From positions 40,658 through 104,657 of the forward strand of contig CAMYMV010000009.1 in assembly GCA_947259585.1 (NCBI GenBank): 64,000 nt of DNA, in the 5' to 3' direction. The notes below the pieces were generated by a model. It did no database searches and had not been told where the DNA came from. It was given only the letters and a program-made list of their open reading frames with translations. Position 1 is the stretch's first letter. Each line of letters opens with the position of its first letter. Both the position numbers and the translations under genes were made by a program. Source of the DNA: an uncultured Gemmatimonadales bacterium. Its GTDB lineage: Bacteria > Gemmatimonadota > Gemmatimonadetes > Palauibacterales > Palauibacteraceae. Positions 10,323 to 39,604 of the stretch are shown here, piece by piece.

Positions 10323-10409
10323 CTTATCCGCTGCCTCAATTATCTAATTCTAGATGCGAGCAGGGGCGGCCCCGAAGGAAGCAGTGGAAGGCTCAGTTCG
10401 GCGGGTTCA

Positions 10410-10607
10410 TCAGTTCGGGAAGTCCATCCGTCGCATGATCTCCATGTAGCGGGGATCCTCCCGCACGGGGTCCCATAGATGCTCCACATTCTGATACGGC
10501 ATGTTGGGGTCGCGGGCGTCGTAGCCTCTTGCGAGCCAATCGAGGGCCCGATCGTAATCTCCGGCCTCTAAGAACTGAATCGCGACGTCGAGCGGCGCCA
10601 CATACAT
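10410..10607 (-). pseudogene. C-terminal remnant of a TPR-type protein
   Basis: The 65-aa ORF (LEAGDYDRALDWLARGYDARDPNMPYQNVEHLWDPVREDPRYMEIMRRMDFP) looks like only the last repeat and tail of larger TPR proteins. No N-terminal body is present upstream. Confidence 0.5.
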
Positions 10608-10619
10608 GATCTCGGCGCT

Positions 10620-10659
10620 GGGCCGGGTGTTCTGTTGAATTCAAATCCACCCGGGCCCA
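10620..10659 (+). other. tRNA 3'-end-like minihelix (T-loop TTCAAAT, CCACC, acceptor CGGGCCC, discriminator A)
   Basis: GGGCCGGGTG...TTCAAATCCACCCGGGCCCA. The acceptor 3' strand can pair with GGGCTCG at 10153 with one G-U pair. It lies on the same strand as the 5' fragment, about 440 bp away. Confidence 0.5.
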
Positions 10660-11022
10660 CTGCTCCACAACCTCATGAGATGCTGTCAGTTACTACCTGC
10701 AGCACCTCTCTCTGGATCTTGCCTTTTGGGCCCGTACTGTCGATTCAGCCACCGGTCCGAACCAGCTCGAAGGGCGCGCCTCCGCTCCAGGGCAGCTCGC
10801 ATCGTCTCCTGCTCCCAAGCCCGAGAAGCCGTCCGGCCCGGTGTACGCGCGTGCAGCGCGCCGCGCCGAAGTCCGTCGCTCGCAGGCTCCGGGCCCGATC
10901 CCTAGCTTCATGGGCCGGGACTCGGCCCGGACCGCTCCGGAGGCGCGGCGATCCGACGACCCTTCGGACCCCGCGGACGCCGGAGCGGCCGTTCAACCGT
11001 CCATCGGGAGGGCACTGCCGTT

Positions 11023-13752: not shown

Positions 13753-13755
13753 GGT

Positions 13756-13894
13756 GCCTGATAAGCGAGCCAGAGGTCCGCCCATTTCCGGCTATAGCCC
13801 GTAGTTTCGCGGCTTCTTGCGGATCAGCCTCGGAAGCCGAAATGCTGTTTTCGGGGTTTTCCCGGATCTGAACAGCCCCAGCAACAGCCCCAGC
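13756..13894 (+). repeat. 139-bp direct repeat, copy B
   Basis: See copy A. It begins 4 nt after the UPF0182 stop codon. Confidence 0.85.
13828..13860 (+). terminator. Intrinsic-terminator-like hairpin inside repeat copy B
   Basis: CCTCGGAA-N13-TTTCGGGG followed by TTTT, about 76 nt after the UPF0182 stop. Differences from copy A keep the pairing intact through G-U wobbles. Confidence 0.55.
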
Positions 13895-14034
13895 TCGACA
13901 CGGGCTACTAGGAAGAAGTCGCGCTTACGTAGCCCCCCAGCTCAAGCCTGCTCGCCGGGAATCGATCCTCGGGCATACCTCGCTGAATCGGTCCGTCACC
14001 ACCTGCTTGCAAAACATATGGCCTAGGGCCCGAT

Positions 14035-16937: not shown

Positions 16938-17432
16938 TTGGCTGGAATGCCTACCGACAGATTGGGCAGGGACCAGAAAGGATCCCGCCGGAGGACCTCG
17001 AACCCAGGGCGGAGGAGGTTCATCAACTGGCTGCTCGGCACGAGCGCCGGTGGGCTCATGCTGGCTGTGCTCTATCCGGTCGTTCGGTACGTGATCCCTC
17101 CGGCCTCCGCAGAATCCGCAGCCCGTTCAGTCGCTCTCGACCTCGCAGCTGACGAGATTGAGCCGAACACTGGACAGATCTTCCGGTTCGGTACCGCCCC
17201 TGGCATCCTCGTCCGAACGCCGGCTGGGGAGCTGCGTGCGTTCTCAGCGGTCTGCACGCACCTCGCGTGCACCGTCCAGTATAGACCTGACCTGAGCCAC
17301 ATCTGGTGCGCCTGCCACAACGGCCATTTCGATCTGAACGGAATCAACATCGCTGGCCCGCACCCACGCCCGTTGGACTCGTACAGCGTCAAGGTCGGAG
17401 ACAGGCGGATTGTGGTATCGAAGGGGGACTGA
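16938..17432 (+). CDS. Rieske [2Fe-2S] protein with twin-arginine signal
   Basis: RRRFINWLLGTSAGG (Tat-like signal), plus CTHLAC...CACHNGHF (CxH...CxxH Rieske ligands). Confidence 0.88.
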   Translation: MAGMPTDRLGRDQKGSRRRTSNPGRRRFINWLLGTSAGGLMLAVLYPVVRYVIPPASAESAARSVALDLAADEIEPNTGQIFRFGTAPGILVRTPAGELRAFSAVCTHLACTVQYRPDLSHIWCACHNGHFDLNGINIAGPHPRPLDSYSVKVGDRRIVVSKGD

Positions 17433-17497
17433 AGACCGTCGTTCACCGCATCTAGGGCCGTCTCGGCACCACCCATGCTGTCTCCCTGACACACCCT

Positions 17498-17552
17498 CTT
17501 AAGAAACCTTAACGCTGTCTTCAGGCGGACTTAACGAGATTTCGTCTACGCT
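17498..17552 (+). promoter_or_regulatory. Island operator/promoter site B (TonB-DUF411-YHS operon)
   Basis: CTTAAG-N4-CTTAAC-N5-CTTCAG-N5-CTTAAC-N11-TACGCT. Confidence 0.65.
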
Positions 17553-17651
17553 GTCTGAGAAATGGGTGTCCTGATGTTCAGCCGTCCAGGTGACCAATCC
17601 GCAAGTAGCGGCGAATGGGAGCCGCCGGCCGATCGTCGGGAGGAGGTTTGA

Positions 17652-18329
17652 ATGACGACGTCGACCGACAGGGGAGACAGAGATCTCCCCGAAAGCGCCA
17701 ACGATACATTCAAGCGGCAGCAGTCCAACTTGGTGAGCCTGGGCCTGATTGTAGCTGTTGCTGTTCACTTCGCCTTCTTCACGCTGTTTCCGCGTCTGCA
17801 CGCTGCAGATCTGTCGGGTCGCGACGGGGAGATCGAGGCGGTACAGCTCCCGCCGGAAGTTCGGATACCGCCTCCGCCCCAGCAGGTCGCCCGGCCCGCG
17901 ACGCCAAAGGTCGCTGCGGCGGAAGTGAACGAAGACGTGACGATCGCACCCACCACGTTCGATGCGAATCCGGCAGAGAACCTCCCGCCGCCCCCGAGGG
18001 CCGGGACCTCTCCGGACGATCGGCCCACCTTCATTCCCTACGACACGCCGCCCAGGCTGCTTAACCCGGATGAGATCCGGAAGGCGCTGGCGCGCCTCTA
18101 TCCCGACCGGCTCCGTGAGGCAGGGGTCGAAGGCGCGGTGGTTCTCTGGATCTTCATCGACTCGAGGGGAGAGGTGCGGAAGTCGCACGTCCAAAGCGGC
18201 AGCGGCTACGACGCGATGGACAAGGTGGCCCAGGAGATCGTCGGGCGAATGCGGTTTACCCCGGCCAAGAACCGGGATAAGACGACGCCGGTATGGGTCG
18301 CTCAGAGAGTCGCCTTCGAAGTCGGGTGA
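17652..18329 (+). CDS. TonB-family energy transducer (C-terminal TonB domain)
   Basis: N-terminal TM helix, a Pro-rich linker (PPEVRIPPPPQQV), and a TonB_C-like end (AVVLWIFIDSRGEVRKSHVQSGSGYDAMDKVAQEIVGRMRFTPA). Confidence 0.8.
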   Translation: MTTSTDRGDRDLPESANDTFKRQQSNLVSLGLIVAVAVHFAFFTLFPRLHAADLSGRDGEIEAVQLPPEVRIPPPPQQVARPATPKVAAAEVNEDVTIAPTTFDANPAENLPPPPRAGTSPDDRPTFIPYDTPPRLLNPDEIRKALARLYPDRLREAGVEGAVVLWIFIDSRGEVRKSHVQSGSGYDAMDKVAQEIVGRMRFTPAKNRDKTTPVWVAQRVAFEVG

Positions 18330-18370
18330 CTCTCGTGTTGCAGGACGAGAAAACCAACAGGAGTCGTGTG

Positions 18371-18859
18371 ATGAAAAACAGGAACATTGTCGGAATCGGG
18401 ACCGCCCTTGCCATCGCGGCCGTAGTCGGCGCGTTCACATTGCTGTCTTCGGGCCAGAAGATCGCAGCAGGCCCCTCGCTCTCGGAGGAAGGGCCCGAGA
18501 TCCTGGTCTACAAGGGGCCGCAGTGCGGTTGCTGCGACAAGTGGGCCGAGCACCTCGAGGAAGCCGGCTTGAAGGTGACCGTAGAGGAAATCGAGAACCT
18601 TCACCCCATCAAAGCCAAGTACGGCATCAGGCCGGAGCTTTCCTCTTGTCACACGGCGGTCGTCGAGGGCTATGCGATCGAGGGACACGTCCCGGCAGAT
18701 GAGATCCTTCGCCTGCTGGAAGAGCGTCCCGAAGTCGCAGGACTCACGGTACCCGGCATGCCGATCGGCTCTCCGGGGATGGAGGAAGGACCGGCGGAGG
18801 CCTACGAAGTCCTGACGTTCGATTCATCTGGTAATACAGCAGTTTTCGCTAAGCGCTGA
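18371..18859 (+). CDS. DUF411 (CopG-type) periplasmic metal-binding protein
   Basis: YKGPQCGCCDKWAEHL...CHTAVVEGYAIEGHVPADEILRLL...VPGMPIGSPGME. The start is at MKNRN (18371). Confidence 0.88.
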   Translation: MKNRNIVGIGTALAIAAVVGAFTLLSSGQKIAAGPSLSEEGPEILVYKGPQCGCCDKWAEHLEEAGLKVTVEEIENLHPIKAKYGIRPELSSCHTAVVEGYAIEGHVPADEILRLLEERPEVAGLTVPGMPIGSPGMEEGPAEAYEVLTFDSSGNTAVFAKR

Positions 18860-19035
18860 GGATCTGTGGGAGGCGTCGCGTCCAGCTTCTTGAACCGGGC
18901 GCTCCGAGGGCGTCACCCGGTGCGAGCTGGAACGCGTCGCCTCTCCAGCAACCTGGGGCAACCCGGAACCGAAGCGTCGGTGGACAGGAGGAGGTGACTT
19001 CCGTCGCTCAGGTGCCGAAAGGAGGATCAGGAGCC

Positions 19036-19695
19036 ATGCAGATACGAGACCCGGTATGCGGTATGAGTTTCGACCGCGAGGAAGCTGTCGCTGTCGTGGA
19101 GCAAGCGGGGGAGGATTATCGCTTCTGCTCCCCCGGCTGCGCGGAGGCATTTGCGCAAGATCCTGACCGGTTCATCGAAATCCAGGAGTCTCTGCCCGTC
19201 GATCAGCCTCTTAGCGACCGCTTCCGTGGGCGGCTCGACGACCCGGATGAGATAGGTGCCACCGAGCCCCTCTCGACCACGTGTCCGATCTGCGGAGTGG
19301 AAACAGGGGTGGCACGTGTCTGCCAGACGGAACTCGGTTCGCTCGGGTTGGTCGAGCTCGAGACGATGGTGCGTAACGAGTGGCGGCGCCGCATGGGCAG
19401 CGAAGCCTACCGAAGGCCACATCCACGATCGCTGATCAGGTCGCTGGTCGTATATGCGCTTGCGCCGGAGAGTTTGGCGCGACGAATGACCGCTGAGAAC
19501 GAGGTGTGGAGTGAGGTTGCCATGCTCGAGTCCTGGGGCCTTAGCAGACAGGCTATGAGGGCTGAGTTGCAGGAATTGATGCAGGCAACCCTGGATGTCT
19601 TGGCGGACAACTGCGCCGAAGTCGATGAAAGCCGGGCGATCCTGGACCCGATCGAGAGGATGCTCGAAGAGACACTCAGCTGGCCGCCTGCGTAG
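19036..19695 (+). CDS. YHS/TRASH-domain protein with about 150-aa unknown C-terminal domain
   Basis: MQIRDPVCGMSFDREEAVAVVEQAGEDYRFCSPGCAEAFAQDPDRF. The ATG at 19036 follows AAAGGAGGA. Confidence 0.8.
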   Translation: MQIRDPVCGMSFDREEAVAVVEQAGEDYRFCSPGCAEAFAQDPDRFIEIQESLPVDQPLSDRFRGRLDDPDEIGATEPLSTTCPICGVETGVARVCQTELGSLGLVELETMVRNEWRRRMGSEAYRRPHPRSLIRSLVVYALAPESLARRMTAENEVWSEVAMLESWGLSRQAMRAELQELMQATLDVLADNCAEVDESRAILDPIERMLEETLSWPPA

Positions 19696-19813
19696 CAGGA
19701 ACCACTGTCGGCCCGGCCCCGAGATGCCGGCTGTCGCACCTATCCTTACCTAGCGGTACCGCCGCCCAGATCCCCGAAGTCGATCTAGGCCGTCTACTCC
19801 GTAATCCAGGCTA

Positions 19814-19868
19814 GTTAAGGTTTCTTCACTCGACTTTAAGCCGGCCTTCACGCGTACCCTCCCATAGT
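19814..19868 (+). promoter_or_regulatory. Island operator/promoter site C
   Basis: GTTAAG-N4-CTTCAC-N5-TTTAAG-N5-CTTCAC-N11-CATAGT. Confidence 0.65.
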
Positions 19869-19900
19869 TGCACCCGAAAGCATAGGCGAACCGCAGCAAG

Positions 19901-20644
19901 GTGGGTGGAATGATCCCGGATTCCTACGTCTGGTTGGTATGGTCCAGCGCGTTCCTCATCCCGTGGGCTCTTCTCTATATCGCGTTCGCGCTTCATCGGC
20001 GAGTGATGATCTGGGCCAGCCTCTTCACCATGCCGTTTGGGCTGACGGAGCCGCTGTTCGTTCCCGAATATTGGAGCCCGCCGAGCCTCTTCGACCTTGC
20101 CCGGCGTACGGGATTCGATATCGAGAGCCTCATCTTTTGCTTTGGGATCGGCGGAATCGGCGCAGTGCTCTACAACGTGCTCACACGGCGGGCAGCGGCG
20201 CCCGTGGAAGCCTGCGAGCGGGAGCACCGGCACCACCGGTTTCATCGCTGGGCTCTGGCGGCTCCCTTCATGGCATTCCCCGTCCTCTATCTGCTGCCGT
20301 GGAACCCTATCTATCCAAGCATCGCGGCGATGTTGATCGGAGCCGCCGCGACGACTTGGTGTCGCCCCGACTTGAAACGCAACACGATCGTGGGAGGCGT
20401 TCTCTTCCTCGCGTACTACTCCGTCTTCCTGTTGGGCCTGGAGGTGTCCGCTCCCGAATACATCGAGCGAGTGTGGAATCTGGATGCCCTGACCGGCGTT
20501 CGCCTGTGGGTCTTCCCCCTCGAAGAGCTGTTGTTCGCCATCGCCTTCGGAGCCTACTGGGCTGGGGTCTATGAGCATTTCACGTGGAAACGATCCAGTG
20601 AGACGACGACGGCGGCAACGGCGGTGCCAAGTGGAGCTCCGTGA
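19901..20644 (+). CDS. Polytopic membrane protein, family not recognised (weak resemblance to lycopene-cyclase-domain proteins)
   Basis: 247 aa with about 7 hydrophobic segments. It is a single-gene unit behind site C. Confidence 0.6.
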   Translation: MGGMIPDSYVWLVWSSAFLIPWALLYIAFALHRRVMIWASLFTMPFGLTEPLFVPEYWSPPSLFDLARRTGFDIESLIFCFGIGGIGAVLYNVLTRRAAAPVEACEREHRHHRFHRWALAAPFMAFPVLYLLPWNPIYPSIAAMLIGAAATTWCRPDLKRNTIVGGVLFLAYYSVFLLGLEVSAPEYIERVWNLDALTGVRLWVFPLEELLFAIAFGAYWAGVYEHFTWKRSSETTTAATAVPSGAP

Positions 20645-20665
20645 GCAGCCTTTGCCCGGTCGCTT

Positions 20666-20721
20666 CATAAAGATGTCTTCACGGCAGCTTCAGGCGGTCT
20701 TTAATGCGCACTCACTATCCT
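20666..20721 (+). promoter_or_regulatory. Island operator/promoter site D (copA operon)
   Basis: CATAAA-N5-CTTCAC-N5-CTTCAG-N5-CTTTAA-N11-TATCCT. Confidence 0.65.
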
Positions 20722-20814
20722 GATGTTGAACGCGGCAGGCCCTTAAGGAGAGCCGACTGTGGGAAACGAATTCCCAAGGGGCCCTCAGTCGCACGACAGA
20801 CGATCGAAGGAGCA

Positions 20815-21444
20815 ATGGAAATGACCAAGATGACACGAGGCTTCCTGTCTGTAGTGACGGTAGCCCTTCTGACCGTTCCGGCAGTCCTGTCGGCGCAGGA
20901 GCAGGAGCACAAGCACGGAAAGGAAGCAGGAAAGCAGGAGGCGAGCAGCATGCGGGGCCCGCATGGGGCTCACGCGCAGGGCCAGATGATGGGAATGATG
21001 TCGCAGATGGGCATGGGTGCGATGGGACGAAACCCTGCGATGCTTCTCGCACAAAAGGACGCGCTCGGTCTGTCGGACGACCAGGTGGAGCGCATCAAAG
21101 CGGTCCAGGAGCAGCTGGCAGGAACTCATAAGTCTCACATGAGTGAGATGCGCCCCATTCACCAGGCTCTGATGGAAGCCCAGCAGTCCGACGATCCCGA
21201 CACTGGACAGATCGAGTCACTTCTCGAGCAAATGGCGCAGGGCCACATTCAGCTCCACATGGAGATGTTCCGCTTGGGCGGAGAGGCGCTGGATGTGCTG
21301 ACTCCCGAGCAGCGGGCGAACGCGCGCTACGGGATGAAGATGATGATGAAGCATATGAAGCGACCGATGAGCGGGTGCGGGATGGGCATGATGTCGGGCG
21401 GCATGCAGCAGGAAACGCCAGAGCACGGAGGTGACTCGTCATGA
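20815..21444 (+). CDS. Periplasmic Met/His-rich Spy/CpxP/ZraP-like protein
   Basis: Signal peptide, then MMGMMSQMGMGAMG and MKMMMKHMKRPMSGCGMGMMSGGM tracts, and LTxxQ-like motifs (LSDDQVERIK, LTPEQRANAR). The ATG at 20815 follows GAAGGAG. Confidence 0.75.
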   Translation: MEMTKMTRGFLSVVTVALLTVPAVLSAQEQEHKHGKEAGKQEASSMRGPHGAHAQGQMMGMMSQMGMGAMGRNPAMLLAQKDALGLSDDQVERIKAVQEQLAGTHKSHMSEMRPIHQALMEAQQSDDPDTGQIESLLEQMAQGHIQLHMEMFRLGGEALDVLTPEQRANARYGMKMMMKHMKRPMSGCGMGMMSGGMQQETPEHGGDSS

Positions 21445-21632
21445 GGTTCTGGCCGCGAAAGGGAGACCTCACCGATCGGCCGCCCCTCGTCACCTGTCCG
21501 ATCTGCAACATGACTTTTCGGTCGGACAAGGCGGCGGCGACGGCGAAGCGCGGTAGCTGGATCTACTACTTCTGTACGGAGGCGTGCCTTCGGCAGTTCG
21601 AGGAAGATCCCGCGCGCTACGCGAAGGGATAA
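21441..21632 (+). CDS. YHS/TRASH-domain small protein
   Basis: MRFWPRK...CPICNMTF...YYFCTEACLRQFEEDPARY. Its start overlaps the upstream stop (ATGA). Confidence 0.8.
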   Translation: MRFWPRKGDLTDRPPLVTCPICNMTFRSDKAAATAKRGSWIYYFCTEACLRQFEEDPARYAKG

Positions 21633-21649
21633 GGGGCGGAGGAGGGTGC

Positions 21650-22351
21650 ATGGACCCCGCCGTACAGATCGTACGCGCGTACCTCCAGCTCAACGGGTAC
21701 TTCACGATCTGCGAGTTCCCGGTCGTAGAGCGGTCGGTGAGGGGAGGGCGTTACAGCGCCGCAACGGACATTGACGTCCTAGCGCTTCGCTTTCCCCACG
21801 CGGCCCACGAGATCCACGTCCGACCACCAGGAAAAGGACGAACGACCGGGCCTCATCGACCCGAACAGACGGTACACTTGGACGCCGATCCGGCCTTGAG
21901 GATTCCCGACGACAGGCTCGACATGATCATAGGAGAGGTGAAGCATGGGCGCGCGGAAGCGAACCCCCGACTTCTCGATCCGCTCGTCCTTGAAACCGCC
22001 ATCTCGCGAACCGGCTGCTGCCCTCCAGCTGCGGTCCGGAGGACCGTGGAACGGCTTGCACGGCAGGGACACGCCGAACTCGATCACGGTGACGGCCTAA
22101 GGTGTCGCGTGCGACTGATGGCCTTCGGTGGGGTCGCATCTGGCGGTGGCAAGGTCGAAGTGATGCGTCTTCAGCACGCGGCCGGGTTCATCCACAAGCA
22201 CCTATGGAAGTACGATCGCGAGCTGAAGCCGGCGCGCTTCGGGGATCCGATGGTCGACCTCTTCCAGCTGTTTCAAAAGCTTGGTCTGTTCGCCGGCGAG
22301 CAAGGCGGCACCCGGATGGCTGCGGGCAATCATGGAGGAGGTCAACCATGA
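21650..22351 (+). CDS. PD-(D/E)xK nuclease-fold protein, unknown function
   Basis: VRAYLQLNGYFT..E..ATDIDVLA...MIIGEVKHG follows the E / D / ExK pattern of YraN/NucS-type folds. The ATG at 21650 follows GGAGGAGGG, and the 3' end overlaps the next gene by ATGA. Confidence 0.6.
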   Translation: MDPAVQIVRAYLQLNGYFTICEFPVVERSVRGGRYSAATDIDVLALRFPHAAHEIHVRPPGKGRTTGPHRPEQTVHLDADPALRIPDDRLDMIIGEVKHGRAEANPRLLDPLVLETAISRTGCCPPAAVRRTVERLARQGHAELDHGDGLRCRVRLMAFGGVASGGGKVEVMRLQHAAGFIHKHLWKYDRELKPARFGDPMVDLFQLFQKLGLFAGEQGGTRMAAGNHGGGQP

Positions 22352-22881
22352 GTGTCGCCCGCGATCGCGACTCTGAGTCGCGCGGGTGTCGCGTCTGCCT
22401 CGTCGTTTCCGGGCTCTCGTGCGCCGGTGAAACCGCCTCGATCGAGCGCCGGCTGTCGGCTCTGGACGGAGTACGGAGAGCCACCATCAGTCCGCTTCGG
22501 GACCGCGTTTACGTGGATGTCGAGCGGCTTGTGCAAGTGGAAGGAGTTGTCGAGCGCCTGGAGCACCTCGGTCATCCGGTAGACAGCGGTCTCTTGCAGG
22601 TCACGACGTGGATAGCGGGCTCAGCGGAACGGCTCGACCAGCTGAGAGAACGACTTCTCGCATTGAACCACGTCGTCTACTGCCATGCGTTCGGACCGAC
22701 GGGACGGCTGGATTTGGGCCTCGAGCTTCGAGGGGAGTGGAAGATAGCGGCACATGAGATATGCCGGCTTCTGTGCCAAGCCGCCGGCGAGCGCGAGCCG
22801 ATTCTGCCAGCCGACCAGGCTGCAGCTCGTTCGCCCGAGATCACCCCGACGCGACGGGAAGGAGGAATGCGGACACCTTGA
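22348..22881 (+). CDS. HMA-like (ferredoxin-fold) protein with degenerate metal site
   Basis: [29 protein letters not shown] has the position and spacing of GMTCxxC, but the second Cys is replaced. The gene is coupled on both sides (ATGA, TTGA). Confidence 0.6.
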
Positions 22882-25379
22882 ACGATACCAATGGCTTGAG
22901 CTCTCGGATCAACATCTCGGATGCCGTACAGGACGCTGCCAACGCCGAGCTTTCCGTGCTCGGAATGACATGCGCTCACTGCTCAACCGCAATCGAGGAG
23001 ACGGTGAGCGCGATCGACGGAGTCCGTGCCGTCCACGCGAACGCCACTTCCGGCGTGGTCCACGTCGCCTATGAACCGTCACGGACCAGGATCGGGGCGA
23101 TCGTCGAGGCGGTGGAGCGGTCCGGATACCGAGTTGGCCGTGAGACGCTCCGTGTGCCGATCGATGGGATTCACTGCGCGAGCTGCGTGACGCCAATCGA
23201 GGAGGCGCTGACCGCTGCCCATGGCGTGCTAGACGCCACAGTGAGCCCAGCGACCGAGACCGCCACCGTGGATTACCTGCCGAGCGTGGCCGATTTCGGA
23301 TCGATCGAGGCGGCCATCGAATCTGCCGGCTACCGTGCGCACAACGGCTTGAAACAAGAGGAGCCGGATCGGGAAGCAGCCGACCGCGAGGCGGAGTATC
23401 GGTCGCTGATGCGGAAGTTCTGGTTCGCAGCGATCATCTCCGTCCCGGTGCTGGCTACAGCCTACCCGGAATTCGTGCCTGGATTATCGGGCCTCAGCCG
23501 GACCACGGTCCGATGGATTTGGGCGGTGGACGCGCTGCTCGCGCTCGCTGTGCTTCTCTACTCGGGCCGGCACTTCATCACAGGAGCCGTGGCTTCGTTC
23601 CGCCGCCGGTCGGCGGACATGAACACCCTCATCGCGATCGGCACCGGAGCTGCCTGGCTGTACTCCGTCGTGGCGATCGCCGTGCCGACACTTTTCCCAG
23701 AAGGTACCGCGGAGGCGTTCTTCGATGTAACAGCCGTGGTCATCGCCCTCGTCGTGCTCGGGCAGGCCCTCGAGGTGCGAGCCAAAGGCCGAACCTCCGC
23801 CGCAATTCGCAAGCTGCTCGATCTCCAGGCGAAGACCGCCCGCGTCATCCGGGATGGGGTGGAGGTGGATATCCCGGTGGAAGAGGTAGAAGTCGACGAC
23901 GTCGTGGTCATCCGGCCTGGCGAGAAAGTGCCGGTCGATGGGACGGTCACCGAGGGGGCGAGCGCGATCGATGAGTCGATGGTCACGGGAGAGAGCATCC
24001 CGGTAGAGAAAGGTCCGGGAGATCCGGTAATCGGGGCGACGATCAACCGGGCCGGCAGTCTGAAGTTCAAGGCCACGAAGGTGGGCAAGGACACAGCCCT
24101 CGCACAGATCGTCAAGATGGTACGGGACGCACAAGGTTCGAAGGCGCCGATTGCGCGGACCGTGGATGTCGTGTCGAGCTACTTCGTCCCGGCCGTCATG
24201 ATAGTGGCCCTGCTGGCCTTCGGGGCCTGGTACACCTTCGGGCCAAGCCCGCAGCTCACGTACGCCATCGTCGTTGCAGTCACCGTTCTGATCATCGCGT
24301 GCCCCTGTGCTCTCGGTCTCGCCACTCCGATGTCGCTCATGGTCGGGGTCGGAAAGGCAGCCGAAAAGGGTGTGCTCATTCGGAACGGAGAGGCACTGCA
24401 GGCCTCTCGCGCCCTAAACGCCGTCATCCTGGACAAGACGGGGACTATCACCAAGGGGCAGCCCGAACTGACCGACGTGCTCACGAGTGACGGTTTCGCG
24501 GAGATCGACGTGCTACGGCTCGCCGCCTCCGCCGAGCGTCGCTCCGAGCATCCGCTAGGAGAGGCGATCGTACGGGCGGCACAGGCGCGAGAACTCGAGC
24601 TGGCAGAGCCCGAAGGCTTTAAGGCGATCGCGGGCCATGGGATCGAAGCGACCGTCGAAGAAAGGTCGATACTGCTCGGCAACCGGAAGCTCATGACCGA
24701 CCGAGACATCGACTTCGGCCCGATGGCGGAGGGGCTGACGCGGCTATCCGACGAGGGAAAGACCGCCATGTTCCTGGCGATTGACGGTCGACCGGCCGGG
24801 ATCGTAGCGGTCGCCGATACACTGAAGGACGACTCGTCCGCAGCCGTAGCGGCCCTCCATCGGCTGGGACTCGAAGTGGTCATGCTGACCGGCGACAACC
24901 AGCGGACCGCTCAGGCGATCGCGAGCCAGGTAGGGATCGAGCGGGTGTTGGCCGAAGTCCTTCCGGAGGAGAAGGCAGCGCAGGTTCAGAAGCTTCAGGC
25001 GGAGGGCAAGAGAGTCGCGATGGTGGGAGACGGAATCAACGATGCTCCGGCCCTAGCGCAAGCAGACGTGGGGATCGCAATCGGGACGGGCACGGACGTG
25101 GCGATCGAAGCCGCTGACGTCACTCTGGTAGGCGGCAGCCTAACAGGCGTCGTGCTCGCCATCGATGTTTCCAAGAGAACGTTCCGCAACATCAAGCAGA
25201 ATCTGGTCGGGGCGTTCGGCTACAACACGCTGGGTATCCCGATCGCGGCAGGCGTTCTCTATCCCGCCTTCGGCACGCTCCTCTCCCCCCTCATCGCCGG
25301 CGCCGCGATGGCATTCAGCTCCGTCACCGTGGTGACGAACGCGAACCGCCTGCGTCGCTACCGGCCTCGAGAAGCGTAG
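22878..25379 (+). CDS. copA: Copper-translocating P1B-type ATPase with two N-terminal HMA domains
   Basis: GMTCAHC and GIHCASC HMA motifs, [25 protein letters not shown]. The start is proposed at the TTG at 22878 (AAGGAGGAA upstream, TTGA overlap). The track start at 22761 overlaps the previous gene. Confidence 0.93.
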
Positions 25380-25410
25380 AGCCGAACTTACAAACCATAC
25401 GAGGTGACGC

Positions 25411-25785
25411 ATGTCAGTGGACATAATCTTGGTCGACCTCGCGGTAATCGTCGCCATCGCATGGGTCGCTTGGTACTTCTGGCTTTCTGAGAAAGAGGCT
25501 GTGAGAGCGGTGGCTGCGAGCGGCGCACAGGAGGTCATGATCCGCGTGAAGGGCGGCTACGACCCGGACGTCATAGTCGTAGACAGTGGCCGTCCCGTAC
25601 GGCTGCACTTCGATCGTCAAGAGACGGCGTCCTGCAGCGAGATGGTTGTTTTCCCCGACTTCGATGTCTCGCGGCGGCTGCCGGAAGGTGAGCTCGTCAC
25701 GATCGAGCTCACGCCAGAGACTCCTGGCGAGTACGAGTTCTCCTGTCAGATGGGAATGTTGCGTGGTCGGCTGATCGCTAATTGA
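25411..25785 (+). CDS. Membrane-anchored cupredoxin-like domain protein (ATPase-associated type)
   Basis: N-terminal TM helix, then VMIRVKGGYDPDVIVVDSGRPVRLHF..CSEMVVFPDF...GEYEFSCQMGMLRGRLI. Confidence 0.8.
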   Translation: MSVDIILVDLAVIVAIAWVAWYFWLSEKEAVRAVAASGAQEVMIRVKGGYDPDVIVVDSGRPVRLHFDRQETASCSEMVVFPDFDVSRRLPEGELVTIELTPETPGEYEFSCQMGMLRGRLIAN

Positions 25786-25842
25786 GCGTTCGATTCTCCT
25801 GCGCTGGCGGCGTTAAAGAAGGACCGGCGGAAAGAGGCGTGA

Positions 25843-26583
25843 ATGCCGACTGCACCTACCACACAGGACGTGGTTCGCAGCGCCCACTGCGGGACTGGAG
25901 GGTCTGCCGCGCTGTTAGTCGAAACCACTCGGCGGCAGGATCTTCTGCGCGGCGTCTGGAAGGAGAATCCCGTCCTCGTTCAGCTTCTGGGCCTGTGCCC
26001 GGCGCTGGCCGTCACGAATACCGTGCGAAACGGCTTCGCCATGGGGCTCGCAACGGCCTTCGTACTCGTAAGCTCGAGTTTCTTCGTGTCGAGTCTCAAA
26101 CGTCTGATCCCACACGAGGCCCGCATTTCGTCCTTCGTGCTGATCATCGCCACCTTCGTGACCGTCGTCGACATCTTCATGGCGGCGATGGTGCCGGATG
26201 TTTCGAAGGCCCTCGGGCCTTTCGTCCCCCTCATCGTGGTCAACTGCATGATCCTCGGGCGACAGGAGGCGTTTGCGAGTCGCCGGCCAGTTCGCCGTTC
26301 GGTGCTTGACGCCACGGGTACCTCGACAGGCTTTCTCATTGCTCTGCTACTGATGGGCGGCTTTAGGGAGTTGATGGGAAGTGGGAGCCTGCTGGGCGTG
26401 CGGGTCATGCCCCATAACTTCGAGCCGTGGGTCATCATGGTCCTGCCGCCCGGCGGTTTCTTCACCCTGGGCTTCATCCTGCTTGCACTGAGTTGGACTC
26501 GGCTGCGAAAAGCAGAGACTGGCCGCATGACAAGACCGCGCCGATGGCCCCATGGCGTGCTGACCGAAAGGAGAGCAGCCTGA
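25843..26583 (+). CDS. RnfE/NqrD-family membrane subunit (orphan)
   Basis: WKENPVLVQLLGLCPALAVT...PFVPLIVVNCMILGRQEAFA is collinear with E. coli RsxE as I recall it. Confidence 0.88.
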   Translation: MPTAPTTQDVVRSAHCGTGGSAALLVETTRRQDLLRGVWKENPVLVQLLGLCPALAVTNTVRNGFAMGLATAFVLVSSSFFVSSLKRLIPHEARISSFVLIIATFVTVVDIFMAAMVPDVSKALGPFVPLIVVNCMILGRQEAFASRRPVRRSVLDATGTSTGFLIALLLMGGFRELMGSGSLLGVRVMPHNFEPWVIMVLPPGGFFTLGFILLALSWTRLRKAETGRMTRPRRWPHGVLTERRAA

Positions 26584-27158
26584 TGGGTGAGCTGTTCGCC
26601 ATATTCATCTCGGCATCGTTGGTCAACAACTTCGTCCTGGCGTACTTCGTGGGTCTCTGCCCGTTCTTTGGAGTTTCGAGGCAGGTATCCACCGCCGTCA
26701 GGATGGGCGGCGCGGTGACAGCCGTGATGCTCCTCACGTCCCTGGCCGTCTCCTTCCTGGAGGCTTTCCTACTGCCGCCCGTGCCTTTCCTTCGGCTCAT
26801 TTCGTACATCGTGGTTATCGCTTCGCTTGTACAGATCCTCGAGATGGCGGTCAAGAAGCTGAGCCCCGTGCTGTTCAGGGAGCTAGGGATCTTCTTGCCG
26901 CTCATTACGACGAACTGTGCCATTCTCTATCTGGGTCTGTTCCAGTACGCGCGCGGCTACGACTTCCTGCAAGGGATCTTCTTCGCGTTGGGAGCTGGAG
27001 CGGGCTTCACGCTCGCGCTCGTGCTAATGGCATCCATCCGACAGGGATCGGAGCTCGCTTCCGTTCCTGCCATCGCCCGGGACATGGGATTCGCGCTCAT
27101 CGTAGCCGGCAGCCTGTCTCTCGCGTTCATGGGTTTCTCCGGACTCTTCTCATCATGA
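26583..27158 (+). CDS. RnfA/NqrE-family membrane subunit (orphan)
   Basis: SLVNNFVLAYFVGLCPFFGVS...GIFLPLITTNCAILYLG...SLAFMGFSGLF. The ATG overlaps the upstream TGA (TGATG). Confidence 0.88.
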   Translation: MGELFAIFISASLVNNFVLAYFVGLCPFFGVSRQVSTAVRMGGAVTAVMLLTSLAVSFLEAFLLPPVPFLRLISYIVVIASLVQILEMAVKKLSPVLFRELGIFLPLITTNCAILYLGLFQYARGYDFLQGIFFALGAGAGFTLALVLMASIRQGSELASVPAIARDMGFALIVAGSLSLAFMGFSGLFSS

Positions 27159-27177
27159 ATCGCCGGCACGCCGCTCT

Positions 27178-27534
27178 ATGAAAGCGCCGTATCTCGGGAT
27201 CGTCTTCCTCGGCATCGTCGCAATTTTGAACGCGGCGATGATGATCGGGATGAGCCACATGATGGGCTCCCGTCGACCGACCTCTACCAAGGCCGAACCG
27301 TACGAATCCGGCATCCCGCCGCTCGGGGGAACTCGAGAACGATACTCGGTGAGTTTCTACATGGTAGCCGTGCTCTTCATCATCTTCGATATCGAAACGA
27401 TCTTCTTGATCCCGTGGGCGGTTGTGTTCCGGGGCCTGCCTCTGGGAGGGTTCCTCGCGATGATCCTCTTCCTGGCCGTCCTGGGTGTCGGTCTCGTGTA
27501 CGCCTGGAAGAAGGGAGCTCTCGAGTGGGACTGA
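27178..27534 (+). CDS. NuoA/ND3-family subunit (orphan)
   Basis: KAEPYESGIPPLGGTRERYSVSFYMVAVLFIIFDIETIFLIPWAVVF...GLVYAWKKGALEW. Confidence 0.88.
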   Translation: MKAPYLGIVFLGIVAILNAAMMIGMSHMMGSRRPTSTKAEPYESGIPPLGGTRERYSVSFYMVAVLFIIFDIETIFLIPWAVVFRGLPLGGFLAMILFLAVLGVGLVYAWKKGALEWD

Positions 27535-27722
27535 CCGGCACTCTAGGCCGTTCACCTGTTACCGATGGCTGCCGCCCCTTGACGTGGATATCGCGCACGC
27601 CCTCCTCCGCCTGACCCACTTCGTAAGCTGCAGCATCGCCAAGTAGAAGCCGATCCTTGCCGCCAGCGCTCGCTGGCGTGTCGGGAGCCCCTCTCACCGC
27701 GCATGGCTCGCCTCGACGTTTC

Positions 27723-27777
27723 GTGAACATGTCTTCATGCCAGCTTTAGCGGCGCTTTAGGGAGCGGGACGTATCGT
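27723..27777 (+). promoter_or_regulatory. Island operator/promoter site E
   Basis: GTGAAC-N4-CTTCAT-N5-CTTTAG-N5-CTTTAG-N11-TATCGT. Confidence 0.65.
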
Positions 27778-27867
27778 GTGGTCGGGCGGGATGCCGTTAC
27801 TGACAGGAAGGGCGCCCGGGAGAGGAAAGCCAAAGAGGAGCCCGAGCGGTTCAGACCGGAGGATACT

Positions 27868-28185
27868 ATGAAACAGGGGAAGATCGAGCTGGTTGGGGCT
27901 CTGGTGACCGTCACCGCCGCCAACCCGTTGCGCGCAGATCCAACGACGAGGGTGAATTCGATGAGGTTCTGGTCCCGGAAGCCGGCGCCCGAAGGTGAAG
28001 AGCGTCCAGCGAAGGTGACGGACCCAGTCTGCGGGATGGCCTTGGACAGGGAGAAGGCCGTGGCCACCGTCATCCTCCGCGACCGGACCGTCTACTTCTG
28101 CTCGAAGGCCTGCCAGCGACAGTTCGAGGAAGACCCCAACCAGTACCTCAATCTGCAATCTGCGAGGTCGGCACGTAAGGGCTGA
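27868..28185 (+). CDS. YHS/TRASH-domain protein
   Basis: MRFWSRKP...VTDPVCGMALDREKAVATVILRDRTVYFCSKACQRQFEEDPNQY. The ATG at 27868 follows GGAGGAT; an alternative start is the internal MRFW. Confidence 0.8.
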   Translation: MKQGKIELVGALVTVTAANPLRADPTTRVNSMRFWSRKPAPEGEERPAKVTDPVCGMALDREKAVATVILRDRTVYFCSKACQRQFEEDPNQYLNLQSARSARKG

Positions 28186-28188
28186 ACG

Positions 28189-29529
28189 ATGGAAACAGCG
28201 CCAAACACGAGACATGTCGAAGGCTTTGATCGTGGGTTGGGCGAGGTGCGGGCTGGACGCCGCGAATGGGACATCATCGTTGCTGGGGCAGGGCCGGCCG
28301 GTAGTCGTGCCGCCGAGTTACTCGCAGAGCACGGAGCCTCGGTCCTGATGCTTGACCCGAAGGCGCCGTGGGAGAAGCCGTGCGGAGGGGGGCTTACGGC
28401 AGCGGCGCTGCGCAACACTCCGGAGCTGAGAGAGCTCGCCTCTGGTGGGGACACCATTCGCGAGGTACTCGTGATCGCGCCGAGTGGCGCCAGCGTCGTT
28501 CTTCCGATCCGCGATCCGTACGTGACGGTGAGCCGGCTCAGGCTCTCGCAATGGGGACTCGAACGTGCGGAAGCAGCCGGTGCGGTGTTCCTGAGGGCTT
28601 CGGTTCGCTCGGCCAATCGGGATGCCGGCGGATGGAGCATCACCGACTCTGAAGGCGGGGTCCATAGTGGCCACAGGCTCATCGCCGCAGACGGAGCCAA
28701 CAGCAGACTAAGGCGTGTGCTCGCTCCAGGCCTTCGGCCGGAGCTGGCTCCGGTCCGAGTGTCCTACCCGGAAAGCGGAGCCCCCGAAGGGAGGGCCGTT
28801 CTGCTCTTTCTCGCTGCCGCGGAGGGATACCTGTGGGACTTCCCGCACCCCGAGCGTCATTCCGTTGGAATCGGGGTTCTAGCACGAACTTTCGGGCGCG
28901 ACGCGCTCGACGAGGCGATCGCCCAGTACAGACTGGCTGAGAGCGGCGAGTCCGGCGTTGCCGAGCACCGAGGCGCCGTGATCGCCACCTCCCGTTGGTT
29001 CAGCGGTTCGTTCGACCAGCTCGGCGGCCACGACTACGCGTTGCTCGGAGACGCCGCCGGCCTGGCAGATCCCGCGACTGGCGAAGGGATCGACTACGCT
29101 TGCCGTTCAGCGAGCCTCGCTGCGCGAGCGTTTAGCCGGGACGGAGGATTCGAGCGATACCCGACCGCTGTTCGAGCGGAGTTTGGCAAGGAGATCCGGC
29201 GGTCACGTCGTCTGAGGGAGAAGCTCTATCGGCCGGCAGTTGCGGATCGACTCGTGCGGTGGGCACGGCGCTCACCCAGAGGTGCGCTCGTATTGATGTC
29301 CCTGTTTGATGCGGTAAATGAGCATCGGTCACTTCGCCGCGGAGTCGCGCATGGGTTTCTCTCTCGGATCCCACCGCACCATCCAGCCCGCCGTGTGTGC
29401 GCCTGCCCGGACGGAGATAGCGAACTGGCGCCGCTGCCCGACCCGGCTCACCGGGCGCGTGGTCTCGACACCAGCACCGGAAGGGCGTCGGCCGATAGTG
29501 CCAATGCGCAAGGAGAGTCATGCGCGTAA
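28189..29529 (+). CDS. FAD-dependent oxidoreductase, geranylgeranyl-reductase family
   Basis: WDIIVAGAGPAGSRAAELLAEHGASVLMLDPKAPWEKPCGGGLT (dinucleotide-binding motif plus the family CGGG block). Confidence 0.82.
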   Translation: METAPNTRHVEGFDRGLGEVRAGRREWDIIVAGAGPAGSRAAELLAEHGASVLMLDPKAPWEKPCGGGLTAAALRNTPELRELASGGDTIREVLVIAPSGASVVLPIRDPYVTVSRLRLSQWGLERAEAAGAVFLRASVRSANRDAGGWSITDSEGGVHSGHRLIAADGANSRLRRVLAPGLRPELAPVRVSYPESGAPEGRAVLLFLAAAEGYLWDFPHPERHSVGIGVLARTFGRDALDEAIAQYRLAESGESGVAEHRGAVIATSRWFSGSFDQLGGHDYALLGDAAGLADPATGEGIDYACRSASLAARAFSRDGGFERYPTAVRAEFGKEIRRSRRLREKLYRPAVADRLVRWARRSPRGALVLMSLFDAVNEHRSLRRGVAHGFLSRIPPHHPARRVCACPDGDSELAPLPDPAHRARGLDTSTGRASADSANAQGESCA

Positions 29530-29597
29530 CGCCAGGGCGCATGACGAGCGCACAAGGCAAGCATGCCCAACAGGCAGTCCAGAGAAGGAGGCACGCA

Positions 29598-30119
29598 ATG
29601 ACCGCGGGGATCACAGGGTCGTCACACAACGGAGATCGGTGCTGCGAGCCTTCTCGCGACCAACTGGCAGAATACGCGCCCGGTCGGCCGGAGATGCAGC
29701 GAATCGAGCTCTCGCTCAGCGGGCTACGGGATACGAACGCTGCGTCCAAGCTAGCGACGCATTTCCGGCAGCTGGCCGGTGTCCGCTCAGCAATGGCCAA
29801 CCCCATCTCCAGTCGCCTGCTGGTGGAGTTCAACCCAACCGAGAAGAGCGTGGAAGACGTTGTACGATCAGCTGAGGTGCAGGAACCCGACGTGGGTCGA
29901 GCCATGGCCCGTTGGCATATTCGGATGCCGGAGTTCGACTGCGATCGGTGCGCCCGCCTCGTGGAAGAAGACGTCAAGGCCGTGGCCGGCGTTGAAGGAG
30001 TAACCTGGAATGCGGCTGTCAGGTGCCTCACGGTCGAATACACGCCACGGCGGCTTGTAGCTGCCGCTGTGAGGGCTGCTCTGGTGACGCGTCACCCTCA
30101 TGGTTCCGAGTGCCGGTGA
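29598..30119 (+). CDS. Tandem HMA-like domain protein (first domain lacks Cys, second has CDRC)
   Basis: RIELSLSGLRDTNAASKLATHFRQLAGV (no CxxC) and HIRMPEFDCDRCARLVEEDVKAVAGV. The ATG at 29598 follows GAAGGAGG. Confidence 0.6.
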   Translation: MTAGITGSSHNGDRCCEPSRDQLAEYAPGRPEMQRIELSLSGLRDTNAASKLATHFRQLAGVRSAMANPISSRLLVEFNPTEKSVEDVVRSAEVQEPDVGRAMARWHIRMPEFDCDRCARLVEEDVKAVAGVEGVTWNAAVRCLTVEYTPRRLVAAAVRAALVTRHPHGSECR

Positions 30120-30206
30120 CGCACGAATCAGGAAGGGGGGAGATCAATGCAGGCTCGAGATCCGGAACGCTGCCTGCGCTTTGATCGAGCACCTGCCGTC
30201 ACGGCG

Positions 30207-30725
30207 TCAGGGCCGGTCGTAGGGGATGAAGCCCACCAGGAGGATAGCCAGGCCGACGATGATGTTGTTAGAGGCCAGTCCGTGCCCGAGGTGGAGTGGG
30301 ACCAGGAACGCCCCCACTGTGAGCCACAGGCCTAAGAGCGTAGCCAGACTGCCCCGGACCCGCCGCCTCCGCACGAGGGATATCCCTGCGGAGGTAACGG
30401 CAACTCCCGCCAGGAGGTCCGACCAGCCAACGAATTGGTGCATGGGAGCTAACGCCGCGACGGCTATAGTCCACGCGCCGAATAGTCCGATGACCCACCG
30501 CTCGGGGCACATTCCCGAACCGTGCCGACCCGCAAAGCGCTGACGCCCCTCGTCTTGGACGGCGTCAGGGTCACGTTCAGGAGATGCATACCAGTCAGGA
30601 TGTCTCGCGAAATGTTGCCTACACGGCTCGGAGCAGAAGTCGTACGTCTTTCCCTTGTAGGTGAAGGTTGCGAATGCATCGTCCTCTTCGATTGTCATCC
30701 CACATACGACGTCTCGCACAAGCAT
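30207..30725 (-). CDS. YHS/TRASH domain fused to a four-TM (SPW-repeat-like) membrane domain
   Basis: MLVRDVVCGMTIEEDDAFATFTYKGKTYDFCSEPCRQHFARHPDWY, followed by hydrophobic repeats. The ATG at 30725 follows GGAGGA. Confidence 0.75.
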   Translation of the reverse strand: MLVRDVVCGMTIEEDDAFATFTYKGKTYDFCSEPCRQHFARHPDWYASPERDPDAVQDEGRQRFAGRHGSGMCPERWVIGLFGAWTIAVAALAPMHQFVGWSDLLAGVAVTSAGISLVRRRRVRGSLATLLGLWLTVGAFLVPLHLGHGLASNNIIVGLAILLVGFIPYDRP

Positions 30726-30813
30726 CGATCCTCCACTTGCTGTATGGCTCACTCCTAACGACCGGCTCAACGCGTGCTTTTCCAAGCCGCAGAGCTGGAC
30801 AGAAACGCGAGGG

Positions 30814-31683
30814 TCAATTGGCTCGCAGCACGAGCCCGATCGCGACCAGCGCGAGGCCAATTCCAGTTGCCTCCATGCCTCCAACGCGTTCTCCAAAGAA
30901 GATGGAGGCGAGGGCTAGCCCAACGACCGGGACGAGAAAGAGCAATAGGCTAAGCCGTCCCACGTCCTCTCTCTGCACGAGCCAATACCACAGGGCGAGA
31001 GCGAACGCGGTCCCGACGACGGCGAGAAAGACCAACAGAACCAAGAAGGTCGCGCTCCACTGGATCGCCGAGCCGGATTCCACAGCGGCGGAGAGGAGCA
31101 GAAGCGGTGGGGTCCCGAGCAGCAGCTGCCATGCCGTCACGGGCAAGACGGCGTTGCCCACGTCCAGACGCTTGAGGAGGACACTGGAGCTGGCCGCCCC
31201 TCCGGCGGCAAGCAGAGGAAGAAGGGCTGCTACGACGCCGGCCCGAGCCGGGTCCGTCACCGCAGGCCAGGCGATGAGGCTTACCCCGACCGTGCCGAGG
31301 GCGAGCGCTGTCAACTTCACGCGGGAGATCGGCTCTCCGAGAGCGACCGCCGCCAGCAGGATGACCATGAGAGGCCCCGTATTGCCGAGAACAGAGGAGA
31401 TTCCGGCCCCGGTGCGGCCAGGGCTGAGGAACATCGCTGCGTAGGCAGCGAAGGTACCGATCCCGGCGAGGAGGAGAATCCCGGCCCGGTAGCGCCGGGG
31501 CGGGAGCACCGGCTGGCGCGCGGCGAAGAGTACGACCAGCAGCGTTGCACCCCCGATGCCTGCCCTGAGCCCGGCAAAGCGAAGCGGCGGAGCGAACGAC
31601 AGCCCCGCTTTGATAGCGGAGTAGCACAGGGCATAGATGGGGACTAGGGCGAGTGCAAGTACCAGGCGGCTGCGCGAGCTCAT
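30814..31683 (-). CDS. EamA/DMT-family transporter
   Basis: Ten hydrophobic segments in a duplicated EamA pattern. I chose the start at MSSRSRLVLALAL. Confidence 0.8.
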   Translation of the reverse strand: MSSRSRLVLALALVPIYALCYSAIKAGLSFAPPLRFAGLRAGIGGATLLVVLFAARQPVLPPRRYRAGILLLAGIGTFAAYAAMFLSPGRTGAGISSVLGNTGPLMVILLAAVALGEPISRVKLTALALGTVGVSLIAWPAVTDPARAGVVAALLPLLAAGGAASSSVLLKRLDVGNAVLPVTAWQLLLGTPPLLLLSAAVESGSAIQWSATFLVLLVFLAVVGTAFALALWYWLVQREDVGRLSLLLFLVPVVGLALASIFFGERVGGMEATGIGLALVAIGLVLRAN

Positions 31684-39179: not shown

Positions 39180-39604
39180 CTGCAAGGCTCTCGAAATGGT
39201 GATCCGGGAGGAGCTTGCAGACGAGCCGCATTCCGCCTGAAACCGCAAGAAAAACACCGTCCATCAGATTTGGCCAGCACCCGCAGTGCCGCGCATCTCC
39301 GCACAATTGAGAAGCAAGACGCTGACGGTATCGGTAGCCGGCCAGGCCTCCGCAAGCGACTCTGAGGGCAAGACTGGAATTACTCCTGAAATGACGAATC
39401 GACGAGAAGGCCTGTCGCTCGCCAGCTGGTGGAACCGGCCAGATCCGACGAGATCATCATCGAGCGACGGCGAAGCAGCCTCGAGTGGGGCGTCATTGGG
39501 CTCGTGATCGGACTGGCGGCGGGTCTGGGTCTCTGCTTGCTACGTCAGGATCCTGCGTCGTCATGAAGCCACGATCGGTGGCTGAAGAAACGAGCGAGAG
39601 ATGG

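Follow-up and report, generated by a model that had tools for sequence, protein, structure and literature searches.

Paralogues of RnfE, RnfA and NuoA behind copA and cupA in a Gemmatimonadota copper island, and their possible role as copper-stress subunits

Why would a copper-resistance locus carry membrane subunits of two respiratory complexes? The question is raised by a 64 kb stretch of chromosome (64,000 nucleotides of contig CAMYMV010000009.1, from an uncultured Gemmatimonadales bacterium; hereafter, the window). Its host is a Gemmatimonadota bacterium, and among the matches listed, all close homologues are from that phylum. Directly behind the gene for a copper-exporting ATPase (copA) and a gene for a small cupredoxin-like membrane protein (cupA), the window encodes homologues of RnfE, RnfA and NuoA (the trio). 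The three genes are intact paralogues of respiratory genes, they evolve under purifying selection, their neighbourhood varies between related loci, and orphan NuoA copies have originated repeatedly. As to what they do, we tentatively propose that they are copper-stress iso-subunits, which would assemble with the cell's resident Rnf complex and complex I. A spare-subunit role of this kind seems to us more likely than the conduction of electrons to the adjacent "cupredoxin," which had been suggested in an earlier note made from this sequence.

The gene order given in the earlier note (copA, a membrane-anchored cupredoxin-like protein, RnfE, an RnfA whose start overlaps the preceding stop, and NuoA) is borne out by Pfam, NCBIfam and structure matches. 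RnfE matches the Rnf-Nqr family (PF02508) with 210 bits (cutoff 23.8), and its best NCBIfam class is RnfE/RsxE, with 220.5 bits on TIGR01948 (cutoff 213.4; operon-encoded RnfE copies reach 233 bits) and 231.3 bits on NF009070 (cutoff 184). RnfA scores 170 bits on PF02508 and is best classified as RnfA, with 208.3 bits on TIGR01943 versus a cutoff of 229.3; operon-encoded RnfA proteins from Gemmatimonadota likewise fall under this cutoff (216-223 bits). NuoA scores 122.9 bits on PF00507 (cutoff 23.3) and 104 on the NCBIfam equivalog versus a cutoff of 163, and an operon-encoded copy from the phylum scores just 109. All three align from end to end with solved subunits (RnfE with 7zc6_E, E = 1.7e-55; RnfA with 7zc6_A, E = 4.9e-49; NuoA with 8qby_A, E = 7e-26). 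The rnfE gene has an AGAGG Shine-Dalgarno sequence 5 nt ahead of its ATG; its stop codon shares one base with the start of rnfA (TGATG, 26581-26585), and nuoA starts 19 nt past the rnfA stop.

The sequences also keep features of working subunits. RnfE has a 24-residue N-terminal extension (25843-25914) with a conserved SAHCGTG motif, in whose place VRHAPGA or GSHCGHAG is found in related RnfE proteins from operons, and it retains the C-terminal tail RRWPHGV that is typical of the phylum. The earlier note had reported LGLCP and (T/V)NC motifs in both Rnf proteins. All four cysteines are there, as are both NC motifs (VNC in RnfE, TTNC in RnfA) and the LGLCP of RnfE; the RnfA motif is VGLCP. The note's assignment of these cysteines to an intramembrane cluster agrees with what is known of the normal complex, in which the RnfA-RnfE dimer carries one electron across the membrane via a four-cysteine [2Fe-2S] cluster with alternating access (PMC12174285). 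The note had also named conservation of the ligands in orthologues as a check, and all four are kept in each of the three diverged island lineages that are available (the window and the loci L010 and L099). Their surroundings are unchanged except for a change from L to V in RnfA. In NuoA, the end of the first transmembrane helix (TM1) is rich in methionine and histidine (AAMMIGMSHMMGS), with five methionines and one histidine within ten residues at its cytoplasmic end, while the loop between TM1 and TM2 and the FDIE motif are identical to those of operon copies.

We used genes from operon loci as tblastn queries and found no match in the 64 kb window to rnfB, PFOR, rnfC, rnfD, rnfG or apbE, or to nuoB through nuoL. 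As the earlier note had stated, then, the window has no further Rnf or Nuo gene: the trio is not encoded with the rest of an Rnf complex, and nuoA does not head a nuoA-N operon. Upstream of rnfE we found no remnant of rnfG, and downstream of nuoA none of nuoB; either would have dated the capture.

Where did the genes come from? The nearest relatives of the RnfE and RnfA proteins (65-72% identity) are all encoded in rnfC-D-G-E-A(-apbE) operons (L001, L002 and L005-L007), and 78 of 80 species-representative loci among the matches listed have this operon context. The nearest relatives of NuoA (71-75% identity) head nuoABCD... operons; outside metal-gene islands, nuoA was at the head of its operon in every context that we looked up. 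The island RnfE and RnfA proteins of the window, L010 and L099 form a clade of their own with 100% bootstrap support, nested among operon-encoded Gemmatimonadota sequences and about 30% diverged from every operon copy sampled. Thus, the trio consists of paralogues that were copied from Gemmatimonadota housekeeping operons, namely from rnfCDGEA-apbE (its 3' end) and from nuoA-N (its 5' end).

Several observations concern the operon-type loci themselves. Some rnfCDGEA-apbE clusters (L050 and L067) adjoin a copA gene on the opposite strand, and their RnfA proteins are the closest to the island copy. Two metagenome-assembled genomes have two rnf operons each (L021/L039 and L049/L066). Plasmid 1 of Gemmatirosa kalamazoonensis (L103) has the order rnfC-D-G-apbE-E-A. 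Plasmid searches with NuoA and RnfE returned only ordinary nuo, nqr and rnf operons.

Are the island copies functional? For the window and L010, the ratio of nonsynonymous to synonymous substitution rates (dN/dS) is 0.105 for rnfE, 0.033 for rnfA and 0.051 for nuoA, as compared to 0.080 for copA and 0.060 for cupA. Against the more distant L099 or L098, the ratios are about 0.14 (up to 0.15) for rnfE, 0.054 for rnfA and 0.08-0.13 for nuoA. (dS is 0.3-0.85 over the three lineages and 0.5-0.85 against the distant variants.) Because operon-encoded pairs at similar dS have median ratios of 0.128 for rnfE and 0.163 for rnfA, the values of 0.03-0.15 for the island copies mean that they are under purifying selection as strong as that on the operon copies. 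Therefore, the trio encodes working proteins.

The conserved positions give a more mixed picture. NuoA keeps 42 of the 43 columns with 95% or more conservation in other Gemmatimonadota NuoA proteins, including those in the TM1-2 loop. Of the 92 RnfE columns that reach this level of conservation across 88 operon copies, 5-7 are changed in the island RnfE proteins; for RnfA, 8-10 of 94 such columns are changed in the island proteins (8 of 94 in the window). In a leave-one-out background of 77-88 operon copies, the means are 1.0 for RnfE and 1.1 for RnfA, with maxima of 6 and 8. The changes are common to the island lineages and mostly conservative. Even so, both the TM1-2 loop of NuoA, with its nearly complete set of conserved columns, and the RRWPHGV tail of RnfE would make sense only inside the complexes.

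Compared to the core dimer of Rnf and Na+-NQR (RnfA-RnfE or NqrE-NqrD), then, the island proteins are full-length homologues with the four cluster cysteines and the same purifying selection; they differ in being a separate clade that has 5-10 substitutions where conservation is otherwise 95% or more, and in being encoded behind copA-cupA with no rnfB, C, D, G or apbE in 64 kb. Similarly, the island NuoA resembles the NuoA (ND3/Nqo7) of complex I in its length, which is that of the phylum's operon copies, and in its intact loop (PYESG...GGTRER) and FDIE motif. It differs in its methionine- and histidine-enriched TM1 end and in its location in a metal-resistance island, with neither nuoB nor other nuo genes downstream.

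The earlier note had proposed the adjacent cupredoxin domain as an electron partner for the Rnf-like pair. The cupA product does not look like a periplasmic electron carrier. It has an N-terminal hydrophobic helix (residues 5-25), it is similar to CupA of Streptococcus pneumoniae (2mry/4f2e; E = 1.7e-23) and to the cupredoxin-like metal-binding domain of S. pneumoniae CopA (4f2f; E = 6e-10), and its solved-structure matches are limited to these. The bridging cysteine and the C-x-M-x-M ligands for Cu(I) align with those of CupA. This pattern of cysteine and methionine ligands is not the His-Cys-His-Met site of a blue-copper (type 1) protein, and its location, judged from CupA, would not be the periplasm. 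It is thus a putative cytoplasm-facing Cu(I) chaperone of CopA rather than a periplasmic blue-copper protein. As a chaperone anchored in the membrane, CupA captures copper at the cytoplasmic membrane and delivers it to CopA (PMC7558416). It can reduce Cu(II) in vitro; what supplies the electrons to reset its cysteines is not known (PMC5646241). The window and S. pneumoniae share the N-terminal anchor, the cupredoxin fold with its cysteine and C-x-M-x-M ligands, and the placement of the gene beside copA. In the Gemmatimonadota host, in contrast, cupA lies downstream of copA, and the partner CopA has classical HMA domains instead of a cupredoxin-like N-terminal domain.

The gene order recurs in contigs from independent assemblies: L010 and L011 run from copA through nuoA, and L012 and L013 start within rnfE and continue with rnfA and nuoA. 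This recurrence implies that the arrangement is not an assembly artefact. The window and L010 are collinear over 17209-27540 with 87.7% nucleotide identity, and the collinearity ends 6 nt past the nuoA stop. The link to copA is not constant, however, which contradicts the note's description of the trio as fused to the copA-cupredoxin operon. In L099 (84.6% nucleotide identity), the 7.5 kb block is missing in its entirety, from DUF411 to cupA, and rnfE-rnfA directly follow a tonB-like gene, whose end is joined 20 nt upstream of rnfE (with a gap of about 100 nt). In L098, the tonB end is instead joined to the last 56 codons of rnfA, followed by nuoA, so that rnfE and two thirds of rnfA are gone.

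NuoA occurs alone elsewhere too. The locus L102 (11-8367), a metal island of a second kind, has an orphan NuoA (73% identity) followed by genes for FTR1, a histidine-rich protein (from an open reading frame, or ORF, of 127 codons), an outer-membrane factor, RND efflux, P-II and a P-type ATPase. By distance, the L102 NuoA belongs to another NuoA group than the island copy does. This separate origin implies that an extra NuoA was recruited to metal islands more than once. (The L102 P-type ATPase gene has 75.6% nucleotide identity to the window's second P-type ATPase gene, at 50759-52687.) Together with the loss of rnfE and most of rnfA in L098 and the 42 conserved columns of the island copy, the L102 orphan also speaks against the obligate RnfAE-NuoA module that the earlier note had in mind.

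A further locus, L089 (7989-11551), has rnfE-rnfA without rnfCDG, downstream of MMPL, LolA-like, DUF1302 and SpoIID genes; the pair converges on an EamA gene, an ORF of 145 codons and a divergent orphan nuoA. We considered L089 as a second member of the orphan clade and rejected this, as its RnfE groups with the operon-encoded copy of L100 (98% bootstrap), joins the island clade in only 0-1% of bootstraps, and is accompanied by a divergent NuoA. Because of that grouping, we view L089 as a separate event. Given the arrangements in L098, L099, L102 and L089, lone NuoA and RnfEA copies have arisen more than once. Two candidate markers of orphan copies were also rejected. The "HCG" motif in the N-terminal extension of RnfE is present in P0017 directly after rnfG, and the methionine-rich TM1 of NuoA is part of a continuum across the Gemmatimonadota family. 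(All three types of orphan NuoA that we saw have at least four methionines in the TM1 stretch.)

Loci of this kind are very rare: the trio is present in this order, wholly or in part, in only four contigs, and parts are present in three short variants; assemblies that carry the trio include GCA_012974905.1 and GCA_012974765.1. When metagenomes were scanned for the pattern of rnfA and then nuoA with this spacing, the only hit was a contig that we already knew of (JABAOG010001321.1). Among the matches listed from species-representative genomes, no island-type copy exceeded 70% identity. In the literature on orphan RnfA or RnfE, on PF02508, and on copper resistance in Gemmatimonadota, we found no description of such a module, which is in line with the earlier note, whose author knew of no RnfAE-NuoA module in copper resistance.

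How might the trio act? According to the scenario that we tentatively favour, copies of rnfE, rnfA and nuoA would have been captured into a horizontally acquired copper island on the chromosome and, in the lineage of the window, are probably co-transcribed with copA-cupA. Under copper stress, the trio would be made on top of the operon copies and would assemble with putative resident RnfB/C/D/G and NuoB-N proteins, so that the membrane subunits of Rnf and complex I would be replaced or supplemented. The [2Fe-2S] cluster of RnfA-RnfE would be alternately open to the periplasm, which is where CopA delivers Cu(I), and these subunits may be sensitive to copper. We favour this explanation because the conservation of the proteins, and of NuoA above all, fits proteins that still meet their old partners, and because NuoA is not tied in its behaviour to RnfEA and further respiratory subunits occur singly in the island. 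There is a precedent in Pseudomonas aeruginosa, where orphan CcoN subunits support biofilm respiration and isoforms of the cbb3 oxidase arise from partially redundant operons (PMC5697931, PMC10790758). As in our case, the orphan operons (for CcoN and CcoQ) encode single subunits of a respiratory complex, and redundancy gives isoforms. The differences are that the complexes here would be Rnf and complex I, that the stress would be copper, and that hybrid assembly and induction are hypothetical for the trio.

Several points weigh against the iso-subunit explanation. We know of no documented copper sensitivity of RnfA, RnfE or NuoA. The operon copies of RnfE and RnfA would be competitors for the same partners. 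A role as spare parts does not by itself account for the tight coupling to copA-cupA in the window and L010. The excess of clade-specific changes in RnfE and RnfA (5-10) could equally mean that these proteins have new partners. Finally, so rare an arrangement may be a lineage-specific oddity of weak benefit.

In the main rival explanation, RnfE and RnfA would form a free-standing heterodimer with an intramembrane [2Fe-2S] cluster, as a small redox module for copper. This is the idea of the earlier note with corrected geometry, and we regard it as possible but rather doubtful. The dimer might re-reduce the cysteines of CupA, or reduce Cu(II) to Cu(I) at the membrane for export by CopA; alternatively, it might pass electrons between the cytoplasm and periplasmic partners encoded in the island (the Rieske protein, cytochrome c or CopG). 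In its favour, the genes lie in the order copA-cupA-rnfE-rnfA with short gaps, the two Rnf genes always stay side by side, the stop codon of the first overlapping or abutting the start codon of the second, the four cysteines are kept in three lineages, and RnfE and RnfA have surplus changes at conserved positions. The dimer of the normal complex is already a compact transmembrane electron unit with alternating access (PMC12174285), and the reduction of Cu(II) by CupA calls for an electron source (PMC5646241). Iron-sulfur cupric reductases do exist: the membrane-bound CcoG is encoded in ccoGHIS with the copper ATPase CcoI, and CopZ of Archaeoglobus fulgidus is fused to an iron-sulfur domain (PMC7558416). 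Both systems link an iron-sulfur protein genetically to a P1B ATPase that exports Cu(I), as our locus would, and they thereby give a possible reason for placing an iron-sulfur membrane module beside copA-cupA, but RnfEA has no sequence relationship to them, and a cupric reductase activity of RnfEA is pure conjecture. On the other side, neither an RnfB-like nor an RnfG-like donor or acceptor was found in the window; the pair in L099 has no adjacent copA-cupA; the C-terminal tail and nearly all conserved residues are kept, which fits the old partners; and NuoA, which behaves independently, is left unexplained. To our knowledge, RnfAE has never been shown to be stable or active without RnfD, RnfG and RnfB. 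A broader version, in which the RnfE-RnfA dimer, possibly with the three-helix NuoA-like protein, is a new minimal membrane module for copper homeostasis, seems unlikely to us. Such a module could be a [2Fe-2S] relay, supplying or removing electrons for the interconversion of Cu(II) and Cu(I) at the CupA-CopA site or with periplasmic partners, or it could be a four-cysteine carrier of Cu(I) with alternating access.

The carrier version on its own, in which Cu(I) would take the place of the iron-sulfur cluster at the four-cysteine site of RnfE-RnfA and the alternating-access scaffold would serve as a secondary Cu(I) carrier or membrane buffer, with NuoA as an accessory, strikes us as highly improbable. 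The scaffold has a thiolate-rich site halfway across the membrane with inward and outward states, the genes are directly behind those for the Cu(I) chaperone and pump, and the five methionines and the histidine of NuoA TM1 are suggestive. However, the proposal is purely inferential, the only change near the cysteine ligands is the L to V in RnfA, the methionine-rich TM1 is just one end of the Gemmatimonadota continuum, and the adjacency to copA varies. We also think it improbable, if less so, that the copper context is incidental and that these are the genome's only copies of rnfE, rnfA and nuoA, with split operons completing ordinary complexes. Conservation and constraint do match those of operon copies, and split arrangements exist (L089 has no rnfCDG upstream of rnfE-rnfA, and in Gemmatirosa apbE is inserted between rnfG and rnfE). 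But the island has a G+C content (GC) of 0.61 versus 0.67-0.69 in the core and is a mosaic between close relatives, its clade is about 30% diverged from all operon copies sampled, nuoA outside metal-gene islands always headed its operon in our look-ups, and the loss of rnfE and two thirds of rnfA in L098 would kill Rnf.

The features of the region are listed in the table. (The start of copA was set by alignment to the 833-residue orthologue in L010.)

Table. Features of the window around the rnfE-rnfA-nuoA trio (positions are those of the window)
Feature	Position	Strand	Remarks
Chromosomal core genes	1-14000		MetRS, AccA, DnaE, UPF0182; GC 0.67-0.69
Copper island	~14000-40000		GC down to about 0.61
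Rieske/PetC protein	16938-17432	+	Orphan; Tat signal; CTHLAC...CACHNG; left-hand neighbour common to variants
TonB_C protein (tonB-like gene)	17652-18329	+	Left-hand neighbour common to variants
7.5 kb copper block	18337-25822	+	DUF411/CopG, YHS, lycopene-cyclase-like, LTXXQ, YHS, unknown, HMA, copA, cupA
LTXXQ/CpxP-like gene	20824-21444	+	
YHS gene	21441-21632	+	
Unknown protein	21650-22351	+	233 aa
HMA protein	22348-22881	+	
copA	22878-25379	+	Cu(I)-exporting P1B-type ATPase; two HMA domains
cupA	25411-25785	+	Putative CupA-type membrane-anchored Cu(I) chaperone, 124 aa; Cupredoxin_1 (PF13473), 74.5 bits
rnfE	25843-26583	+	RnfE paralogue, 246 aa
rnfA	26583-27158	+	RnfA paralogue, 191 aa
nuoA	27178-27534	+	NuoA paralogue, 118 aa
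Insertion specific to the window versus L010	27541-30200	+	YHS, geranylgeranyl-reductase-like flavoprotein, HMA; directly 3' of nuoA

The genes from LTXXQ to the HMA protein (20824-22881) are all on the same strand, with stops and starts that overlap or are closely spaced, and LTXXQ through nuoA is probably a single operon of nine genes, judging from spacing alone. Scans for consensus promoters and terminators and a scan with Rfam gave nothing informative. The insertion at 27541-30200 sets the right-hand limit of the conserved block. A second insertion that is specific to the window versus L010 (30726-31990) encodes an EamA transporter, which is 55% identical to the EamA protein encoded beside rnfE-rnfA in L089.

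Because GC drops from 0.67-0.69 to about 0.61 beside core genes, the island looks horizontally acquired, and it is chromosomal. No tRNA gene was found by a tRNA scan, and the ORFs scanned had no match to integrase families. The island further holds a CopRS-like two-component system, a YtkA-like protein, cytochrome c, DoxX, and a Cus-like RND efflux system, in which an outer-membrane factor and a CusB/HlyD-type adaptor are followed by an AcrB-family pump; the pump begins at about 42 kb, where GC climbs again. Among these genes, the lone respiratory subunits are the Rieske/PetC protein and the cytochrome c, and L010 additionally has a cytochrome b. (The cytochrome b gene lies downstream in L010, at 18326-19348; the window is without it, around 39180-39435.) Proteins with YHS/TRASH domains are unusually numerous in the island (18994-19695, 21441-21632, 27778-28185 and 30207-30896, and also 11204-11401 in L010); several of these include fused membrane segments, and one includes a fused SPW domain. 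Further along, the minus strand (52717-53811) encodes a protein that combines an MtrA-like with a pterin-binding (DUF4346) domain, which one would not expect in Gemmatimonadota.

We did not find the recurrent capture of lone NuoA, RnfE, RnfA and Rieske proteins by metal islands of Gemmatimonadota described in the literature. If RnfE and RnfA do stand alone, then the RnfAE dimer would work as an autonomous transmembrane unit for redox or for metal binding, and it would be a candidate source of the electrons by which CupA and chaperones like it are reset. If, instead, the trio provides spare subunits, then Rnf and complex I would, in their membrane cores, be further cases of paralogue swapping under metal stress, and the periplasm-accessible iron-sulfur cluster of RnfAE would be a candidate target of copper.

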